Part shown: positions 37,263 to 45,509 of the stretch, in pieces
How the letters are laid out: every line of letters begins with the position of its first letter
Position numbering within the stretch: position 1 is the first letter of the stretch
DNA from: Gemmatimonadota bacterium
GTDB taxonomy: Bacteria > Gemmatimonadota > Gemmatimonadetes > Gemmatimonadales > Gemmatimonadaceae
Assembly: GCA_040389905.1 (NCBI GenBank)
Contig: JAZJZK010000007.1
Span: 96,001-160,000, forward strand
Reading direction: 5' to 3'
Length of the DNA: 64,000 nt
Program-made: the position numbers and the translations under genes
Notes under the pieces: model-generated
What the model saw: only the letters and a program-made list of their open reading frames with translations
Database searches by the model: none
Told to the model about the DNA's origin: nothing

Positions 37263-37763
37263 ATGATTCGAACGATCGAGGATTTCGTCACCGTCTGGAA
37301 CCAGGAAGCTGCCAACACGTTGAAGCTCTTCAGGGGCCTCTCGGACGCGTCGATGCCGCAGGCCATCACCGGCGAACACCGCGACCTCGGCCGCCTCGCG
37401 TGGCACATCACGACGACCATTCGCGAAATGATGGAGCGGACGGGACTTCACGTTGAAGGCCCGGAGCCCGATGCGCCCGTGCCATCCTCCGCGGAAGAAA
37501 TCGTGAAGGAATACGCGCGTTCCTCCGAATCGTTCGTGAAGTCGCTGGACGCCTGGACCGACGCGACGCTCGATCAGGAAGACAACCTGTACGGCGAGTC
37601 CTGGCGCCGGAGTCTCACGCTTCAGATTCTCCTACTCCACCAGACGCATCATCGCGGGCAGATGACGGTCCTGATGCGTCAAGCGGGGCTTCCGGTGCCG
37701 GGAATGTACGGCCCGGCGAAAGAGGACTGGGCGAAGTACGGAATGCCGACGCCTGCTATCTAG
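37263..37763 (+). CDS. DinB-family protein
   Basis: RDLGRLAWHI, HQTHHRGQMTVLMRQAG. Confidence 0.9.
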   Translation: MIRTIEDFVTVWNQEAANTLKLFRGLSDASMPQAITGEHRDLGRLAWHITTTIREMMERTGLHVEGPEPDAPVPSSAEEIVKEYARSSESFVKSLDAWTDATLDQEDNLYGESWRRSLTLQILLLHQTHHRGQMTVLMRQAGLPVPGMYGPAKEDWAKYGMPTPAI

Positions 37764-37798
37764 GGGCAAGGTGCGTCCCTCGTCCCCAAAGAAAGTCC

Positions 37799-37827
37799 TT
37801 GACACCAATCCGGTGTTCGCCTAAGAT
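37799..37827 (+). promoter_or_regulatory. Sigma70-type promoter
   Basis: TTGACA-17 bp-TAAGAT. Confidence 0.75.
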
Positions 37828-37837
37828 GCTCGGCAGG

Positions 37838-37946
37838 GAGTCGCGTCCCGATGTTCACGTGTCGTTCAGCTATGCATATTCATGCATTGTGAGACGGCCA
37901 GACCCGAAGGCTTAGCCCTTCGCGTTGTTCATCGGCGGCGCGATTT
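37838..37946 (+). ncRNA. Candidate structured RNA (three-way junction) at the transcript start
   Basis: gtcgcgtc-ccgatg pairs with catcgg-c-ggcgcgat; internal hairpins atgcat/atgcat and cgaagg/ccttcg. Confidence 0.5.
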
Positions 37947-37994
37947 GTCGTTTTGGCCTCCTCGCACTTTCAGGAACTCAATCAATCCAACTGC

Positions 37995-38183
37995 ATGACG
38001 ACCTCACTTACCCACCTACTCGCGAACGACCGATGCGCCGGCTCCTGCCAGCGTGCCGCGAGCTCGATCGCGCGAATTGGTGGCGACGCACCGAGGCCAG
38101 TTGCAGTACAAAAAGCCTATCCGTGGACGCAGGTCAACGGAACGAACGACGCAGGCTCCGCAGGGGGAGGCCGTACTTCTTAG
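37995..38183 (+). CDS. Putative 62-aa leader peptide of the rtcB operon
   Basis: ORF ends just before a strong hairpin; its last codons are complementary to the hairpin's 5' arm. Confidence 0.55.
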   Translation: MTTSLTHLLANDRCAGSCQRAASSIARIGGDAPRPVAVQKAYPWTQVNGTNDAGSAGGGRTS

Positions 38184-38218
38184 AGTACGACATTCAACTT
38201 CGGACACGGGACAGCGAC

Positions 38219-38262
38219 AACGCCCCGCCTGCGCAAACGTGCCAGGCGGGGCGTTCTGCATT
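38219..38262 (+). terminator. Attenuator-like hairpin
   Basis: aacgccccgcctg-cgcaaacgtgc-caggcggggcgtt followed by ctgcatt (weak U-tract). Confidence 0.6.
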
Positions 38263-38265
38263 CAC

Positions 38266-38281
38266 GCTGTTTGACAAGTGA
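38266..38281 (+). promoter_or_regulatory. boxA-like antitermination motif, copy 1
   Basis: GCTGTTTGACAAGTGA; near-identical copy at 39956. Confidence 0.5.
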
Positions 38282-38517
38282 TGATCCGAAATGACGTACA
38301 CTCGTCGTCGGCCGGCGCGACATGATGCTCCATGCAGAGAGACACGCGACTCCCCTGTATGTGGTATCCGCTGTCGTTGCCGCGCTGACAGCGACGTCCC
38401 AACTGTTTTGCCTCTGGAGCGCTCGCGGTGCCCTCTCGCCACCTCGCTCCAGGGGCAGGTCAACCAACACCATTCAACCCCAGGAACGACGCGTATGGGC
38501 GTTCGCCGCGCGTCAAC

Positions 38518-38632
38518 GGGTCCGTAGCTCAATCAGAGCACGGTGTCGCCGCACGTACTCCCATTGCCTGACGAAGGCCGGACCGTGAGGAGCACGCCAC
38601 CGAAGATGCGGGTGCAAATCCCGCCGTCCCGA
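38518..38632 (+). ncRNA. tRNA-like RNA with a 52-nt insert replacing the anticodon loop
   Basis: TA-GCTC-AATCA-GAGC D-arm; CGGTG/CACCG anticodon stem; AAGAT variable loop; GCGGG-TGCAAAT-CCCGC T-arm; imperfect acceptor stem. Confidence 0.7.
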
Positions 38633-38696
38633 TTCCTGCCTGGTCGGATCATCACTGCCCAGGGCAATTCAGCCACACACTCACGAGTACCGCATC

Positions 38697-39923
38697 ATGA
38701 AGATTTTTGGTCAGCACGACGAGAAGACTCTCGTCCAGTTCAATAACGTTCGCGCGCAGGCGGTCGACGCTGCGCTGATGGCCGACGGGCATGTCGGCTA
38801 CGTCATGCCCATTGGTGGTGTGGCGTCATACCGGAATCAGGTGTCCGTCGTCGGAGTCGGTTTCGACATCGCGTGCGGCAACGCCGCCATTCGTACGGAC
38901 CTCACCGTTGCGTCGCTCGGTGAGAGCCCGGCCGACGTGCAGCAGGCACTCTCGTCGCTCGCCGATGAGATCGCGGGAACGATCAGCTTCGGTATCGGCC
39001 GGAAGAACCGCGCCGATGATGCACCGGTCGATCACGCGCTCTTCACCGACGCTTCCTGGGACGCTGTGCCCGCGAAGCACCGGCAGGCGCTGCAGGTGAA
39101 GGCGCGGCAGCAGCTTGGAACAGTCGGAAGTGGCAATCACTATGTCGACGTCTTCGCGGACGAGCGGGGCACGTTGTGGGTTGGCGTGCACTTCGGTTCG
39201 CGCGGATTCGGACACACGGTCGCGTCGGCATTTCTTGCGCTCGGCCAGGGCAAGGAGTGGGGCGAGCGCGTGCCGGAGACGGAAGTGCTGCTCGACATTG
39301 GGCAGCCGGTCGGCCACGACTATTGGCACCTGATGAATCTTGCAGGCGAGTACGCGTACGCCGGACGCGAATGGGTTGCCCGCAAGGTTGTCTCGCTCCT
39401 TGGGGGGACCGAGATGGAACTCGTGCACAACCACCACAACTTCGCGTGGAAGGAAGAGCACGATGGTGAAGAGGTGATCGTCATCCGGAAGGGCGCGACG
39501 CCTGCGTTTCCTGGGCAGAAGGGTTTTGTCGGCGGTTCGATGGGTGACGACGCCGTGATCGTGAAGGGAACGTCGGCGAGCATTGCGTCAACGGAGGTGC
39601 AGAGCGCGCAGCGCGCCTCGCTCTACTCGACGGTCCACGGCGCAGGACGCGTGATGTCGCGCACGATGGCCGCAGGAAAGCGCGTGCGTCGCACGGGCCG
39701 GCAGCTGAGCCGAGGGCTCATCTCGCCCGGCATGATGGAGAGTTGGGTGAAGGAGAAGGGCGTCACGCTCCGCGGCGGCGGTGTGGACGAGAGTCCTCAC
39801 GTCTACCGTCGACTGCCTGAGGTGCTCTCTGCTCAGGAGGGGACGATCGAAGTGCTGCACGTCCTACGGCCGCTGGTTGTCGTGATGGCCGGGGAGAACG
39901 AGTTCGATCCGTACAAGGACTAG
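38697..39923 (+). CDS. rtcB: RtcB-family RNA ligase
   Basis: ADGHVGY, GFDIACG, GTVGSGNHY, HFGSRG, HNHHN, RKGATPA, HGAGR, DESP. Confidence 0.95.
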   Translation: MKIFGQHDEKTLVQFNNVRAQAVDAALMADGHVGYVMPIGGVASYRNQVSVVGVGFDIACGNAAIRTDLTVASLGESPADVQQALSSLADEIAGTISFGIGRKNRADDAPVDHALFTDASWDAVPAKHRQALQVKARQQLGTVGSGNHYVDVFADERGTLWVGVHFGSRGFGHTVASAFLALGQGKEWGERVPETEVLLDIGQPVGHDYWHLMNLAGEYAYAGREWVARKVVSLLGGTEMELVHNHHNFAWKEEHDGEEVIVIRKGATPAFPGQKGFVGGSMGDDAVIVKGTSASIASTEVQSAQRASLYSTVHGAGRVMSRTMAAGKRVRRTGRQLSRGLISPGMMESWVKEKGVTLRGGGVDESPHVYRRLPEVLSAQEGTIEVLHVLRPLVVVMAGENEFDPYKD

Positions 39924-39955
39924 ACACCGGTAGACGCGCGTGGGGGCATCCGGAT

Positions 39956-39971
39956 GTTGTTTGACAACTGA
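39956..39971 (+). promoter_or_regulatory. boxA-like antitermination motif, copy 2
   Basis: GTTGTTTGACAACTGA. Confidence 0.5.
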
Positions 39972-40028
39972 CGTGAGTCTGTGGCACACGAAGTATCCGC
40001 GGGCGAGGTTCGATTCCGCGCTGTCTGA
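39972..40028 (+). ncRNA. Degenerate tRNA-His(GTG)-like remnant
   Basis: CT-GTG-GC loop in a weak stem, and CGAGG-TTCGATT-CCGCG T-arm; no convincing D-arm. Confidence 0.35.
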
Positions 40029-40078
40029 TGGTGCCCCGGCAAGGCGCGTTCGAACTCGAATCTTCTCGCGGGTACTTT

Positions 40079-40151
40079 CTCCCTGTCGGCAATGGACAGT
40101 CAACGAGCCTCCGAAGCTCGATTAGTGCGCGTTCGAATCGCGCCGGGGAGA
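40079..40151 (+). tRNA. tRNA-Arg(CCG), atypical D-arm, no encoded CCA
   Basis: CTCCCTG/CGGGGAG acceptor; CGAGC-CT CCG AA-GCTCG; GCGCG-TTCGAAT-CGCGC. Confidence 0.75.
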
Positions 40152-40167
40152 CTCTCCGCCGCACCAC

Positions 40168-40236
40168 ACCTCCGCCTGCGGACCAGGCAACGGGTTTCCT
40201 AAACCTGTCACGAGAGTTCGAGTCTCTCCGGGGGTT
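40168..40236 (+). tRNA. Non-canonical tRNA-Arg(CCT)-like gene
   Basis: ACCTCCG/CGGGGGT acceptor; CGGGT-TT CCT AA-ACCTG; GAGAG-TTCGAGT-CTCTC; the D hairpin follows the acceptor with no nt 8-9 linker. Confidence 0.65.
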
Positions 40237-40312
40237 CTGGCATTAGCAGGCTCGATGAGTGCCGCCAGCGACATCTGGCAGACGGTGCGTTCACGTCTCA
40301 CTCGGCCTATCT

Positions 40313-40385
40313 GTCTCGGTAGCTCCAGCGGTAGAGCGCCAGCCTGAAGAGCTGGGCGACGGTGGTTCGAATCCATCCCGAGACA
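40313..40385 (+). tRNA. tRNA-Phe(GAA), no encoded CCA
   Basis: GTCTCGG/CCGAGAC; GCTC..GAGC; CCAGC-CT GAA GA-GCTGG; GGTGG-TTCGAAT-CCATC. Confidence 0.9.
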
Positions 40386-40391
40386 CTCAAC

Positions 40392-40463
40392 GACCGGCAC
40401 CTCTGGCGAGGTGGCGCGCCTGCAAAGCGCGCAAACAGGGTTCGATTCTCTGGCCGGTCTCCA
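40392..40463 (+). tRNA. Non-canonical tRNA-Cys(GCA) with U73 and encoded CCA
   Basis: GACCGGC/GCCGGTC; ACCTC-TGGC-GAGGT D hairpin with no U8 linker; CGCGC-CT GCA AA-GCGCG; CAGGG-TTCGATT-CTCTG; TCCA. Confidence 0.75.
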
Positions 40464-40687
40464 CCTTCGATTTCGCTGTTGGCGCATGTCACGCCCCATT
40501 GCGACAGGGATTTGTCGGCAGGGCGTGACTCATTGCGGTGTACGCGGCGTCTGTCAAAGGCGCCTAAGCCCCGAGGGTACAAGGACGGGCGAGTATGACC
40601 GCAGCGTGGCGGGATCGGCCTCATGCGCGACGGCCCCTCGCCACTTCGCCGGGATCGCACAGTCAGGATGATGTGCTCGCTGACCGG

Positions 40688-40718
40688 CCCCTAATCGACC
40701 CCTAATCGCCCCTAATCG
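40688..40718. repeat. CCCCTAATCG x3
   Basis: Copies at 40688, 40699 and 40709. Confidence 0.8.
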
Positions 40719-40852
40719 CCATCTGGGAAGGCTCCGGCTCAAAACACTTGGTTCGAGCGTTGCCGCAATACGATCGATGGCTCTCTTTGGCGTCGATGCC
40801 AGTCAGGATACCGGGTCAGAGTACGTCGTACGTATGTGGTTGTACGATGTAC

Positions 40853-42040
40853 TTAAATACGTCTCTCAGCCCATCGCCGCCTGTCCGCTATCAGCAACGG
40901 AATCATCACCACGTACAGCATTGCGCCAAGTATCCAGACGGCCCCGATCCACCGAGCGCGCGTGTACGTGTAGACAAACGTCCCCACGAGCGGCCCCACA
41001 ATCGCCGTGAGGCTCATCAGGCTGGCGAGCACCCCTTGCAGTTCACCCTGCCGAGCCTCGCCGACCTCACGCGACATCATCGCCTGAAGCGCCGGTATCG
41101 CGACGCCACTCAACGCGAAGAGCGGCGAGATTGCGAACGCCACCCAACCCTGCGTCGCCAGCGCGAGCAGGATGAAGGCCACCACATCGGAACAGATCCC
41201 GATGATGATCGTGCGAACCTCTCCAACGCGCGCGATCAGTGGTCCTGTGAGCAACCCTTGCGACCCTGCGTGCCAGATGCCGAACGACGCGAGCGACAAG
41301 CCGACCATCAGTCCGTTCCACTGGAACTTGTCCTGGCCGTACAGCACCCAGACCGTTCCCGGAATGTTGCCGATCAGCCCGAACAGCGTGAATACGCCGA
41401 GGAGCGGCAGGATGATCGAGAGTCCGAACGCCCAGCGCATTGGGGCAAGGGGATTGAGCGTCGCGAGCTGGAAACGCTCGACTGATCTGGCGCGTGATTC
41501 CGGAAGGAGAAAGAAGGTGAGGGCGAGTGTGGCGCCGTTGAGTGCGGCCGCCAGCACGAAGGGCGCGCGGAGGTGCAGGTCGCCAAGCACGCCGCCGATT
41601 ACCGGTCCGACAATGAAGCCGACGCCGAACGCAGCGCTCATCCATCCGAAGCGTTTCGCTCGCTCGTCCTCGGCGGTGATGTCGGCGATGTAGGCGGTCG
41701 CGACGGCCATGTTCGCGCTTGTGAGACCGGCGATGGCGCGGCCTATCAATAAAACGGCGAAGAGCGGCGCCAATGCCATGAATACGTAGTCCACCGTCGC
41801 GCCGGCGATCGAGACAAGCAATACGGGCCGGCGCCCGTATCGGTCGCTTAGTGCGCCCAGAACCGGCGAGAAGACGAACTGCATGAACGCATAGAGCGAT
41901 AACATCACGCCGTACAGCAACGAGATGTCGCTCGAGCCCGTGATCTCCCTCAGCAACCCGGGAAGGATCGGGAAGATCAATCCGATGCCGACCGCATCGA
42001 GCGTGATGATCGAGAGAATGACGACGAGCTGCCGGTTCAT
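40853..42040 (-). CDS. TetA-like (TCR/Tet, DHA1) MFS efflux transporter
   Basis: LDAVGIGLIFPILPGLL, GALSDRYGRRPVLL motif A, GFIVGPVIGG motif C; no adjacent tetR. Confidence 0.9.
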   Translation of the reverse strand: MNRQLVVILSIITLDAVGIGLIFPILPGLLREITGSSDISLLYGVMLSLYAFMQFVFSPVLGALSDRYGRRPVLLVSIAGATVDYVFMALAPLFAVLLIGRAIAGLTSANMAVATAYIADITAEDERAKRFGWMSAAFGVGFIVGPVIGGVLGDLHLRAPFVLAAALNGATLALTFFLLPESRARSVERFQLATLNPLAPMRWAFGLSIILPLLGVFTLFGLIGNIPGTVWVLYGQDKFQWNGLMVGLSLASFGIWHAGSQGLLTGPLIARVGEVRTIIIGICSDVVAFILLALATQGWVAFAISPLFALSGVAIPALQAMMSREVGEARQGELQGVLASLMSLTAIVGPLVGTFVYTYTRARWIGAVWILGAMLYVVMIPLLIADRRRWAERRI

Positions 42041-42115
42041 GGATTCGTGCGAGGGGGGACGACCGCGGACCGGATCCGTGCGCTTGACGCCGTCGGCCGA
42101 TTGAGACATCATACT

Positions 42116-42260
42116 GTCGGCGGCGATCAACGCCCAACCTCTATGACTCCGCCCCAGCTGGAGTCCTGTGCGAGGCAAAGGGGGGTAGACCTTCTGATCA
42201 GTATCGTCGGTCCTTTGCGCCATCACGGGCGCGCTGCTGGGGAGTGGCCCGTGGTGCATC
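42116..42260 (+). promoter_or_regulatory. Candidate structured 5' leader RNA with a possible pseudoknot
   Basis: Stems gactcc/ggagtc, gcaaagg/cctttgc and cacgggc/gcccgtg; loops CCCCAGC (42152) and GCTGGGG (42236) are complementary. Confidence 0.45.
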
Positions 42261-43100: not shown

Positions 43101-43135
43101 GCCACTTCCTGTTGCGCGCAACCCCTCTGCTCCTC

Positions 43136-44236
43136 ATGAACCTTCCTATCAATCCGCCCCTTCTCCCGATGCTCGCCAAGCGCGCTGGCGAGCTTCCCGA
43201 GGGGGACTCCTGGATCTTCGAACCCAAGTGGGATGGGTTCCGCACCCTCGTCTTTCGCGACGGCAACGAGATCTTCATCCAGAGCCGAGACGAGAAACCG
43301 CTCAACCGGTACTTCCCGGAATTGGCGGACGTTTTGCTCGAGCAGTTGCCTGATCGCTGCGTCCTGGATGGAGAGATCGTCATTGCCGGCCAGCACGGAC
43401 TGGAGTTCGAATCGTTGCAGCTTCGTCTGCATCCCGCGGAATCGCGCGTGCGAAAGCTCGCGGAAGCGATGCCGTCGTCTGTGGTGTTCTTCGACGTCTT
43501 GTGCATCGGTGATCGCGACCTGCGCGCGCTGCCGTTCGCGGAACGACGCGCCGAGTTGGAAGCGCTGCTGAACAGGGCGACGGCACCGGTGCATATCACG
43601 CCGGCGACGCGCAACCGCGATATCGCCGCCGACTGGTTCCGCCGATTCGAAGGCGCGGGGCTCGATGGCGTGATTGCCAAGGGAGAAACGAGCAGCTACG
43701 AGCCGAACAAGCGCGTCATGGTCAAGGTGAAACATGAGCGCGATTGTGACTGCGTCGTCGCTGGCTTCCGTTGGCACAAGCGTGGGGACCGCGACGCCGT
43801 CGGCTCGTTGCTCCTGGGCCTCTTCGATGACTCCGGAGCACTTCATCACGTTGGCGTGTGCGCGAGCTTCACCGATGCGAAGCGGAAGGAGCTCGTCACC
43901 CTCCTCGAGCCGTTCCGTGTCGACGCCCTCGTCAACCATCCATGGCGCGAATGGGCCGCGCATCAGACGGATGACACAGGTGCGCAGCGAAAGCCCGGCG
44001 GCGGAAGCCGGTGGAGCCAAGGGAAGGACCTGTCGTGGGAGCCCTTGCGCCCGGAACTCGTCGTCGAGGTGGCCTATGACCACATGCAGGGCGCGCGCTT
44101 TCGTCACACGGCGCAATTCCGCCGGTGGCGCAGCGACAAACGCCCAGTGGACTGCACGTTCGCGCAGCTCGAAGTTGTTCCGCCGCAGGAGTTGATGGCT
44201 ATCTTCGCCGGTACATCTCGCGCCACACGCGCGTAG
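43136..44236 (+). CDS. ligC: ATP-dependent DNA ligase, LigC type
   Basis: FEPKWDGFR, LDGEIV, GLDGVIAK, EVAYDHMQGARFRHTAQFRRWR. Confidence 0.9.
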   Translation: MNLPINPPLLPMLAKRAGELPEGDSWIFEPKWDGFRTLVFRDGNEIFIQSRDEKPLNRYFPELADVLLEQLPDRCVLDGEIVIAGQHGLEFESLQLRLHPAESRVRKLAEAMPSSVVFFDVLCIGDRDLRALPFAERRAELEALLNRATAPVHITPATRNRDIAADWFRRFEGAGLDGVIAKGETSSYEPNKRVMVKVKHERDCDCVVAGFRWHKRGDRDAVGSLLLGLFDDSGALHHVGVCASFTDAKRKELVTLLEPFRVDALVNHPWREWAAHQTDDTGAQRKPGGGSRWSQGKDLSWEPLRPELVVEVAYDHMQGARFRHTAQFRRWRSDKRPVDCTFAQLEVVPPQELMAIFAGTSRATRA

Positions 44237-45509
44237 GATCGTCGTCTGGATCGGGCGTCACCTGCGGTGGCCGAATCGCTTCGGGCACGGCTCGAAGATT
44301 CACTCGAATGCGCGTCCACGTCGACGAGCGGCCGCGCATCGAATCGACGAGTACGTCGTCAACGGCGAGATGGGACGCGACGTCGGGATACCGCGCCTTC
44401 CATCGTTCGAGCCCAGCGAGCGCGGCGGACTTGTCAGGCGAGTTCGCGACGACGATGAGCGGCATCTTGGCGCGCGGAGCACGTTTGCCCGCCGTTGTCT
44501 TCGCCGCGCCCTTCGCACGCGACGGTGCCACGCGGGGCGCTTCTCCATCCATTTTGCGAAAGTGCGGCGGCCAGGGCGCGTCGCTGATCCCCGCCGCTTC
44601 ATCGCGATCCGCGAGCGCGAGCAGCGCGTCGAGCGATCCAACCGAGCCATCCATCGCAGCGTGCGGATCTCCAATGTCCGCGAAGCGCGCGGGCATAGAG
44701 AGGACTGTAAAGTCCGCCGGGTCGCAGAGCGGGACTTCCGCCCACGCTAGCGGTGCGGACACACGCGCATCGGGGAGCGGCCGAATAGAGTAGGCCGACG
44801 CCGTCGTTCGATCCTTCGCGTTCTGATTGTAGTCGAGGAAAACGCCCTTACGCTCTTCCTTCCACCACTTCGATGTCGCGAGCGAGGGAATGCGTCGCTC
44901 GATCTCTCGCGAGAATGCCAGTGCCGCGCGCCGCACCTCGGTGAACGTCCACCGCTGCTCGATGCGCACGTTGACGTGCATGCCGCGCGAGCCACTGGTC
45001 TTGGGCCACCCGCGGAGCCCGAGCTCCGTGAGCAATGCATTGGCTTCCATTGCAACCGTACGAACGTCCACCCACTCGACGCCCGGGCCCGGATCGAGAT
45101 CAATGCGCAGCTCGTCGGGATGATCGAGATCGCTGGCGCGAACGGCGTGCGGATGGAGCTCGATGCAACCCAGGTTCACGACCCACGCGAGTCCTGCCGC
45201 ATCGTCGACGACGATTTCTTCGGCGGTGCGCCCGGAAGGGAATGACAGTGTCACGGTGCGCAGCCAGGCCGGTCGCTTGTCCGGCGCGCGCTTCTGATAG
45301 AAGGGCTCTGCTTCCGGGCCGTTGACGAAGCGCTTGAGCACGATCGGCCGGTCGCGGATTCCATTGATCGCACCGGCCGCCACCGTCATGTAGTAGTGCA
45401 CGATGTCGAGCTTCGAGAGCTGCACGCCTTTGGTGAAATACGGCTTGTCCGGATGCGTGATATCGACGTCGCGATCGTCAAAAGTCAGGCGGTGTGGTTT
45501 GTCGGACAT
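44199..45509 (-). CDS. LigD-type primase-polymerase (Prim-PolC-like)
   Basis: FYQKRAP, PDELRIDLDP, KTSGSRGMH, FLDYNQNAKDRT; convergent with ligC, 3' ends overlap. Confidence 0.9.
   Translation of the reverse strand: MSDKPHRLTFDDRDVDITHPDKPYFTKGVQLSKLDIVHYYMTVAAGAINGIRDRPIVLKRFVNGPEAEPFYQKRAPDKRPAWLRTVTLSFPSGRTAEEIVVDDAAGLAWVVNLGCIELHPHAVRASDLDHPDELRIDLDPGPGVEWVDVRTVAMEANALLTELGLRGWPKTSGSRGMHVNVRIEQRWTFTEVRRAALAFSREIERRIPSLATSKWWKEERKGVFLDYNQNAKDRTTASAYSIRPLPDARVSAPLAWAEVPLCDPADFTVLSMPARFADIGDPHAAMDGSVGSLDALLALADRDEAAGISDAPWPPHFRKMDGEAPRVAPSRAKGAAKTTAGKRAPRAKMPLIVVANSPDKSAALAGLERWKARYPDVASHLAVDDVLVDSMRGRSSTWTRIRVNLRAVPEAIRPPQVTPDPDDDPTRVWREMYRRR

Follow-up and report, generated by a model that had tools for sequence, protein, structure and literature searches.

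The window analyzed here is a 64,000-nucleotide (nt) stretch from a Gemmatimonadota bacterium of the family Gemmatimonadaceae (assembly GCA_040389905.1, contig JAZJZK010000007.1, positions 96,001 to 160,000 of the forward strand), and its element of interest is the RNA ligase gene rtcB with the long leader RNA that precedes it. The leader runs from a sigma70 promoter through a first terminator-like hairpin (gate 1), a uORF (upstream open reading frame) with an antiterminator, a second terminator (gate 2), a boxA signal and a hairpin that we call the key to a tRNA-like RNA, after which rtcB follows. A first-pass annotation of this DNA, made from the letters alone, had described rtcB as embedded in an attenuator-controlled array of non-canonical tRNAs. 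We find a real, lineage-wide and apparently undescribed cassette and, as far as sequence conservation can tell, its conserved and unusual core lies in the leader, including the lock-and-key hairpins and the Y-like RNA, and not in the tRNAs downstream. The features up to the end of rtcB are as follows.

37799..37827, + strand: sigma70-type promoter TTGACA-17-TAAGAT, with the predicted start just ahead of 37836
37836..37954, + strand: gate 1, a terminator-like hairpin with a U-tract (fold z -4.2; conserved pairing)
37995..38183, + strand: uORF of 62 codons ending A-G-x5-R-T-S-stop (frame conservation)
38151..38232, + strand: antiterminator, in which GCAGGC of the uORF pairs with GCCUGC in the 5′ strand of the terminator around a stop-codon hairpin at 38173-38188 (nascent folds)
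38220..38262, + strand: gate 2, a GC-rich terminator hairpin with an imperfect U-tract (z -4.1)
38265..38283, + strand: boxA-like antitermination signal, sharing 16 of 19 nt with the leader ahead of this genome's 23S gene
38306..38396, + strand: key hairpin, a long variable stem whose loop shows ACGCGACUCCC at 38344-38354 (folds, site comparison)
38410..38456, + strand: further hairpin, present in some homologous leaders (z -2.7 for 38385-38465)
38487..38515, + strand: conserved hairpin with an AUG bulge, ahead of the class II RNA (6 of 11 pairs change on both sides)
38517..38633, + strand: class II tRNA-like RNA, with D and T arms and a long bulged stem replacing the anticodon loop (covariation)
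38697..39923, + strand: rtcB, RNA ligase of 408 amino acids (Pfam RtcB, PF01139, in near-identical orthologues)

The first-pass annotation had already named the promoter, the structured 5′ RNA, the leader reading frame with its hairpin, two boxA-like motifs (the second at 39956-39972), a tRNA mimic and rtcB, and all of them were borne out, the mimic by covariation and an Rfam tRNA match of 26.5 bits (below the gathering score) and rtcB as an intact gene; the key hairpin and its complementarity to the 5′ end of the transcript were absent from it. Over 37700-40900, Rfam at E ≤ 10 returned no riboswitch, T-box, GOLLD or ROOL, only tRNA-type and chance matches. The promoter is weak on its own evidence, since its pattern was found once against 0.6 matches expected in shuffles. 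Among homologous sites, TTGAC is kept 35-41 nt upstream in 100 of 106, and the -10 positions T, A and T are kept in 111, 111 and 109 of 112 when the best-fitting of three spacings is taken.

We surveyed 401 Gemmatimonadaceae genomes with the leader's 5′ 16-mer as query and the reversed 16-mer as control. The query revealed 118 sites in 97 genomes, with up to three copies per genome, and the control gave three matches; all 118 sites were fetched, and counts were made on the 106 whose downstream sequence extended for 1.5 kb or more, the 12 that were too short being dropped. The genome tallies (401, and 121 for a phylum search described below) include four unpublished genomes, G307, G334, G470 and G497, whose sequences were not used. 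A search of the 401 genomes with the leader DNA gave piecewise matches in dozens of them. At least 119 stretches matched the leader, mostly from Gemmatimonadaceae and Longimicrobiales among the 80 titles shown; matches in Thiobacillaceae and alphaproteobacteria lacked every other leader feature. A metagenome scan detected 116 distinct sites, and among the 56 that were long enough we found a key in 40, gate 2 in 43 and gate 1 in 38.

Within 4 kb of the leader, RNA-repair genes were found at 70 of the 106 family sites (rtcB at 38, Ro60 at 36, hen1 at 12 and pnkp at 7); class II RNA was present at 33 sites, class I RNA at 14 and tRNAs at 24. The 16-mer occurs in 37 of 43 genomes encoding a TROVE (Ro60) protein, and in 32 of the 43 it lies on the same strand no more than 3.5 kb upstream, with a one-base variant in one more. 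The idea of attenuator-controlled RNA repair in the first-pass annotation is therefore well supported by comparison, the leader being shared by rtcB, rsr/Ro60, hen1-pnkp and tRNA arrays of up to 17 genes, while its emphasis on downstream tRNAs, present at fewer than a quarter of the sites, was misplaced. No regulator gene is conserved upstream among 77 loci. In a tree of 43 RtcB proteins (leader loci over-represented, midpoint root, no clade test), three leaderless orthologues from the genus nest among leader-bearing ones, which suggests leader loss; the label "none" on L090 in that tree is an artefact of a 4.5-kb cut. A phage origin was considered and rejected, the cassette being found in none of 14 viral matches. 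The 16-mer does turn up 109 nt ahead of a phage tRNA array (L311:965-980, + strand), with the remaining cassette absent, and directly after a tRNA at L314; these phage-contig copies reflect either chance or a shared mini-hairpin.

In gate 1, the near-invariant 5′ end GGGAGUCGCGUCCCGA pairs with 37930-37944 across a variable interior. Its partner strand was found at 96 of the 106 sites and lies 40-100 nt downstream across gate 1 sites. Pairing holds in all 91 matched sites, U11 facing G in 47 and A in 44, and G5 facing U in 59 and C in 32. The U-tract that follows averages 6.5 U in 10 nt against a background of 1.5, with at least six U at 84% of the 91 sites, and is broken at positions 4-6. The first 14 nt, which we call the lock, can alternatively form a mini-hairpin with the loop GUCGCG. 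A conserved peptide starting from an AUG at +16 was rejected on the grounds of its lengths (1 to more than 100 codons), its frames (46/36/39) and the presence of the AUG in only 96 of 117 sites. At L213:2460-2579, two copies of promoter plus gate 1 stand back to back in opposite orientations. Eight satellite repair loci from three genera carry gate 1 alone, with no uORF or key, directly before hen1-pnkp (seven loci) or rtcB (one), which gives gate 1 the look of a stand-alone control element; all eight lie in genomes that also hold a second, key-bearing cassette.

The key loop sequence ACGCGACUCCC is the complement of transcript nt 1-11 and lies about 500 nt downstream of them, beyond gate 2. 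A key is present at 89 of the 106 family sites. In 78 folds, ACGCGAC of the loop is unpaired (pairing probability 0-0.2) and the flanking stems are paired (0.83 and 0.72), and the stem sequence is poorly conserved across sites. Among 94 family keys, collected with a filter that demanded the CGCGAC core, 81 are exact, 12 keep the duplex via G-U pairs and one breaks it, so that 12 of 13 variants are G-U tolerant. The metagenome keys comprise 24 exact, six wobble and ten mismatched sequences out of 40, with six of the ten mismatches at the terminal base. Gate 1 and the key are jointly absent from all eight short cassettes listed (L067, L079 and L453-L458), which retain promoter, uORF, terminator and class II RNA. 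The lock-key duplex is calculated at -22.9 kcal/mol, against 14.2 kcal/mol lost from gate 1 on blocking nt 1-11, with the cost of opening the key loop excluded. From these comparisons lock and key look like a pair, for which action in cis, action in trans and a protein site are all candidates.

The uORF and antiterminator were analyzed in the 63 sites with GCAGG 58-78 nt ahead of the terminator. The uORF frame is open from its ATG in 55 of them, as opposed to 2 and 11 for the other two frames, and its stop falls exactly 10 codons past GCA-GGN in 51. The encoded peptide is poorly conserved and ranges from about 40 to more than 100 residues; among 60 C-termini, 32 carry Arg at -3 and 30 carry Pro at -1. 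Pairing of GCAGG with the terminator forms in 61 of 63 nascent folds and in 281 of 315 with shuffled interiors; given the latter, the outer antiterminator helix suffices alone and the folds show feasibility only. At a sixth position, C faces G in 21 of 25 sites (A in four) and U faces A in 9 of 11 (G in two); in the 27 of 63 sites with A or G there, the sixth pair cannot form. The gate 2 pattern, a loose one with at least one false call, was found at 84 of the 106 sites, and the U-tract after it averages 5.5 U in 10 nt (90 sites); a simple terminator scan did not call gate 2. In sequence, the arrangement that defines an attenuator of the whiB7 type, namely an open uORF that overlaps with an antiterminator, whose formation shuts out an intrinsic terminator, is present, and the predicted anatomy of gate 2 is that of the whiB7 attenuator.

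Attenuators of the gate 2 type were also seen elsewhere. This genome holds a second one before a 475-amino-acid MATE-like efflux protein (G000:C14:55163, + strand; label read from the sequence), and a similar locus is L462. The uORF-terminator type, with neither gate 1 nor key, precedes an argC-like gene, as we presumptively label it, at L460:910 (- strand) and a DksA/TraR-like gene at L322:1506 (+ strand).

The boxA signal accompanies tRNA arrays: it is present at 18 of 24 key-bearing sites with tRNAs and at 13 of 65 without. What we take to be the start of the 23S rRNA gene of this genome (G000:C58:1-700, - strand) has its own promoter and boxA with no 16S ahead, so the rRNA genes are apparently unlinked.

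Ahead of rtcB lies the class II RNA, which at E ≤ 10 gives a weak Rfam tRNA match (38518-38631) that leaves 51 positions of the anticodon arm unaligned. In an alignment of 43 class II sequences with their 5′ hairpin, 25 of 47 pairs change on both sides and 95.3% of cells are paired, a level reached by 0 of 500 shuffles in a type of test that related sequences inflate. The UUCGA T-loop is found in three and the D-loop GG in nine of the 43. The class II RNA of the window has no Rfam match to YrlA (RF02553), its order is acceptor-D-stem-T and not T-AS-D, and it lacks the elbow motifs and the Ro60-binding motif, the strand equivalent to GNCGAAN0-1G reading GGCCGGA. Its GACGAAG apical loop was rejected as a Ro60 motif on the grounds that the apical loop varies. 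Ro60 is in the locus at 14 of 33 class II sites and missing from it at 19, and the assembly of the window, which is 84.6% complete, has no TROVE match; given the 19 sites, the class II role, be it as decoy, as RtcB partner or in control of the next gene, is probably independent of Ro60. We also rejected RtcB-mediated splicing of an intron-bearing tRNA and a ribozyme within the anticodon insertion: no bulge-helix-bulge or ribozyme core was seen by eye, Rfam gave no match, and the acceptor, D and T loops are degenerate.

Class I RNA is found in Ro60 loci (13 of 14 class I sites have Ro60). The 29 class I sequences have canonical D and T arms, a GGGCCGAAG strand opposite a UUGCCC-like strand, and UUAU. 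The GGCCGA-type strand, their selection criterion, is in 29 of 29, GNCGAAN0-1G in 19, a YUAY-like motif in 25 and the D-loop GG in 28. Class I RNAs thus carry the YrlA motifs, among them the putative Ro60-binding motif, yet they are not circularly permuted, being in tRNA order with an open acceptor stem and a closed Ro stem. Their best YrlA scores reach 26 bits against a gathering score of 69, and those matches cover ordinary tRNAs. A phylum search with the class I model gave clear class I matches in one of 121 genomes, the others being tRNA-sized. The shared layout and a gap-free alignment of the insert make descent of class II from class I or a Y RNA likely; this stays an inference given that, under the class I model, the window element (37.3 bits) is on a par with an ordinary tRNA (37.2 bits for tRNA-Phe, more than 100 for class I members). 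With an insert-only hidden Markov model, 15 of 43 class II RNAs lie above the 99th percentile of shuffles, and the window's own insert is undetected.

RtcB itself aligned to solved RtcB with E 3e-27, and D57, C60, N147, H148, H165, H247, N248, H314 and E365, which we take to be its catalytic and metal-binding residues, are present. The first-pass annotation had noted no rtcA, rtcR, Ro60 or prfH nearby, and this absence extends to the assembly within its 84.6% completeness: neither RtcR (PF06956) nor RtcA (PF01137) was matched there or in the window, and the two matches to the PrfH model fall below the cut-off and away from rtcB. The gene does not belong to the PrfH-RtcB2 module either, scoring 61 bits against a cut-off of 271.8 (TIGR03073/TIGR03072). 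Past rtcB the following features were found.

39956..39972, + strand: second boxA-like motif (motif match)
40079..40152, + strand: divergent tRNA-Arg(CCG), called by ARAGORN, no Rfam match at E ≤ 10, canonical copy elsewhere in the genome
40166..40237, + strand: divergent tRNA-Arg(CCT) with a non-canonical D arm, called by ARAGORN, no Rfam match at E ≤ 10, canonical copy elsewhere
40313..40386, + strand: tRNA-Phe(GAA) with G37, called by ARAGORN, the only downstream tRNA to reach the Rfam gathering score
40392..40463, + strand: divergent tRNA-Cys(GCA) with U73 and an encoded CCA, called by ARAGORN, found by Rfam only as mascRNA (17 bits)

Four ARAGORN tRNAs are present, and an embedding of rtcB in an array was seen in this genome alone. 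Among 22 rtcB loci in 41 genomes, a comparison of flanks that the first-pass annotation had proposed, tRNAs lie within 1.5 kb only here and in L012; the rtcB orthologue nearest to this one, at 90% identity, is preceded by the leader and has no downstream tRNAs, and in 150 family genomes the downstream block gave nothing beyond single-tRNA matches. The refuting condition set in the first-pass annotation, that orthologous rtcB loci lack flanking tRNA-like elements, holds in part, with the leader also missing from 7 of 11 close rtcB loci. A His-like remnant claimed at about 39975-40025 and decayed stems claimed past Cys found no ARAGORN or Rfam support and did not outdo shuffles in folding (z -1.2 and +1.0, respectively); relaxed ARAGORN was excluded for its many false calls genome-wide. 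In relatives, the leader is followed by 9, 16 and 17 tRNAs, and the block here looks like the decaying remnant of a longer array. In L110 and L116, from Longimicrobiales and a related record, the leader is followed by a class I RNA and then 16-17 divergent tRNAs, including Ile(AAT) in L110.

The first-pass annotation had itself raised the objection that the tRNAs could be the genome's sole housekeeping copies. For Phe and Cys, ARAGORN indeed called no further copy in the assembly. A different, canonical Phe is present, however, in four of five genus relatives, and next to nothing in this assembly matches the flanks of those loci, so the housekeeping Phe is probably unassembled and the objection probably does not apply. 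The array Phe, with its G37, resembles that of a second leader-borne array, in which the order Arg, Phe, Cys recurs. A pattern for the housekeeping Cys had no match in the five relatives and is hence uninformative.

Near the end of the array, at 40687-40718, a 10-11 nt unit (CCCCTAATCG) is present in three copies. An efflux gene of the major facilitator superfamily, Tet(A)/(B)/(C) family, scores above the NCBIfam cut-off at 40853-42259 (- strand) and converges on the array end. Convergent genes for an ATP-dependent DNA ligase and a LigD polymerase domain, of the non-homologous end-joining type, occupy 43112-45509, 2.4 kb from the array. Across the family, 29 of the 106 cassettes encode a 106-amino-acid protein adjoining rtcB or rsr (e.g., L090:4702-5019, + strand) that has no Pfam match and falls into unnamed, mostly Gemmatimonadota Atlas clusters; it is a candidate new RNA-repair accessory factor. 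A SAM-dependent methyltransferase is encoded in 11 of the 106 (e.g., L236:3017-3787, - strand), usually between the 106-amino-acid gene and rtcB. An unknown 160-amino-acid protein and a universal stress protein (USP) stand behind the leader at 13 and 10 sites, respectively (L219:3106-3606, - strand; L128:5148-6206, + strand), and the keys at these sites are often the G-U variants.

Taken together, these features are most readily read as a translation-stress-induced RNA-repair operon under a two-gate leader RNA that is reused as a regulon across the lineage, an interpretation we regard as probable. Transcription would start at the sigma70 promoter and meet gate 1 with its near-invariant 5′ end, a first step that is backed by conservation. 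Transcripts that get past would be translated across the uORF of roughly 60 codons, a stage whose anatomy the sequences show and whose function is proposed. At gate 2, a ribosome keeping pace would melt the antiterminator within the last ten uORF codons and let the terminator form; a ribosome that lags or stalls, through cut tRNAs, damaged ribosomes or antibiotics, would spare the antiterminator and allow read-through. The boxA may then recruit rrn-type antitermination over the untranslated stretch, and read-through would yield the key hairpin, tRNA-like RNAs, spare or decoy tRNAs and RtcB, or in relatives Rsr/Ro60 or Hen1-Pnkp. Finally, the key loop could pair with the 5′ lock in competition with the base of gate 1, with cis and trans about equally likely: in trans the key would open gate 1 on new transcripts, a positive feedback, and at the satellite repair loci, and in cis its effect would be to shield or reshape the read-through RNA. 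The window genome would then hold a reduced operon with RtcB, a Y-like RNA that lacks Ro60 motifs and a decaying four-tRNA block. In the most far-reaching form of this scheme, the key would be a natural transcription-activating RNA, made upon gate 2 read-through, that blocks gate 1, amplifies its own operon and activates unlinked hen1-pnkp and rtcB loci as a protein-free regulon; we put this forward tentatively and would sooner doubt it than defend it.

Several observations weigh against the regulon interpretation and against the pairing of lock and key within it. The surveyed genomes are related, so the counts are not independent. At 36 of the 106 sites the leader precedes other genes (USP with the 160-amino-acid protein, a DksA/TraR-like zinc finger, cytochrome c) or none that was recognised, and 7 of 11 close rtcB loci have no leader. 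Mismatches are brought in by 10 of the 16 metagenome key variants, no compensatory change of lock and key was found in searches that held the lock constant, and the lock variant L452 (U11 to C) retains an unaltered key. In five genomes that are 98-100% complete (G367, G112, G164, G096 and G045), gate 1 stands ahead of DksA-like or USP genes and no key was detected.

This last observation would fit a protein site at the 5′ end, either a DNA operator at +1 with an inverted copy 500 bp on or an antiterminator RNA site, served by an unlinked regulator and with the uORF attenuator as a separate layer. The near-palindromic GGGA-N6-TCCC at the transcription start and its recurrence ahead of different genes, in as many as three copies per genome, point the same way, as does the Anabaena trn operon, co-regulated with rtcB through promoter repeats in the account of PMC8421152. 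We nevertheless find a protein site unlikely, since the second copy is unpaired in the loop of a freely varying stem and keeps just 11 of 14 palindrome positions, C-to-U changes facing G account for 12 of 13 family variants, and a linked regulator gene is missing. Pairing could also occur without any regulation of gate 1, the lock-key helix forming in cis after read-through for 5′ protection or processing of the tRNA-like RNA, like rrn leader-spacer helices, and gate 2 alone regulating. In every case the key follows downstream within the same transcript, boxA suggests rrn-like handling, the U-tract of gate 1 is interrupted at positions 4-6, and short cassettes survive without gate 1 and key. 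Such a purely structural helix leaves the eight satellite repair loci with gate 1 alone before hen1-pnkp or rtcB, and the conservation of the U-tract, to be accounted for, and we consider it rather less than likely.

Gate 2 might work in reverse, as a TnaC-like attenuator in which read-through results from a ribosome arrested at the Pro-stop of the uORF and the signal is defective termination or recycling instead of slow elongation. The fixed distance of the stop from GCA-GGN and the C-terminal Arg and Pro favor such an arrangement, and by the ribosome footprint size that we assume GCAGG would lie just beyond a ribosome parked at the stop. Pro is missing from half of the uORFs, however, the conservation of R-T-P is explained by those codons doubling as the stop hairpin, and a ribosome parked at the stop would cover most of the 5′ strand of the antiterminator; we judge the reversed scheme quite improbable. 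A more sizeable possibility, which we would still bet against, is that this genome carries the locus as a decaying relic, its leader real, its downstream tRNAs and class II RNA defunct, and only rtcB of consequence. The downstream block was found in this genome alone, both Arg genes and Cys fail Rfam, and class II lacks the GNCGAA, T-loop and D-loop motifs. Against decay, class II covaries over 43 sequences and is the sole shared cargo of the short cassettes, Phe is intact, and Cys keeps U73 and its CCA; decay may hold for the downstream block and would leave the leader unaffected.

If the two-gate regulon interpretation is correct, placing RtcB, Ro60, Hen1-Pnkp, spare tRNAs and Y-like RNAs behind one leader would couple three repair systems to ribosome performance. 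The lock-key pair would be a compact, testable candidate from nature for transcriptional activation through an RNA that blocks a terminator. Y RNAs in tRNA order bear on the origin of Y RNAs from tRNA, and the retention of class II without Ro60 makes its proposed roles as RtcB partner or nuclease decoy testable.

Bacterial RNA repair is known to be induced by proteins, RtcR sensing broken tRNA and TrcR acting in cyanobacteria. In Salmonella, the rsr-yrlBA-rtcBA operon under RtcR brings together RtcB, Rsr/Ro60 and tRNA-like Y RNAs and is linked to stress, as passages of PMC7790460 and PMC4201824 describe. Like that operon, cassettes of the relatives combine Ro60 with RNAs bearing GNCGAA and YUAY motifs (YrlA motifs as given in PMC4201824). 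Unlike it, the present system shows neither RtcR nor RtcA, and a sigma70 promoter and RNA leader replace the CARF activator; the Y-like RNAs of Gemmatimonadaceae are in tRNA order, whereas YrlA is circularly permuted according to 10.1101/312249, and the window genome has no Ro60 match. Gemmatimonas is not named in the searched supplements of PMC4201824. Full-text literature searches found nothing on this leader, on control of RNA repair in Gemmatimonadota or on an unpermuted YrlA; Burroughs and Aravind 2016 may cover related neighbourhoods. The b7a-tRNA of that work, as cited in 10.1101/312249, stands beside RtcB and sometimes Rsr, is closely tRNA-like and goes with a band-7 protein. By contrast, class I and II have a long stem at the anticodon position, and no band-7 gene was among the scanned cargo.

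The trn operon of Anabaena, a tRNA L-array, likewise ties supernumerary, divergent tRNAs that are thought to serve in translational stress to rtcB (PMC8421152, whose dataset, as far as it is described there, includes three Gemmatimonadetes genomes with clusters of at most eight genes). Four tRNA genes are found here, two of them with canonical copies elsewhere, and 9-17 in relatives. Control in Anabaena is reportedly through promoter repeats and the repressor TrcR (PMC10272220).

Synthetic small transcription-activating RNAs (STARs) activate transcription at a terminator. As proposed here for lock and key, a nascent 5′ hairpin is recognised in these and in pT181 by a second RNA through loop pairing, which determines whether a terminator forms. 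In pT181 that RNA is an antisense transcript from the opposite strand that shuts transcription off (PMC4878617, in the portion concerned with the plasmid), whereas the key would activate, would come from the same transcript and would offer 11 nt of complementarity. Of the signs of such a switch, complementarity, loop display and joint absence were seen and compensatory change was not. In mycobacterial whiB7, efficient uORF translation leads to termination and stalling to antitermination, a gauge of translation stress (PMC10274678, as its account of the leader has it). The present leader shares with whiB7 a long uORF of variable length and sequence; whiB7 feeds back as a protein on its own promoter, and the present leader instead has an extra upstream gate with a complementary hairpin and RNA-repair cargo. 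By its predicted anatomy the locus is thus best placed as a whiB7-like attenuator on an operon of the rsr/rtcB type, outside the RtcR system, and the tRNA mimic of the window, by the features that define YrlA, would not be counted as one.

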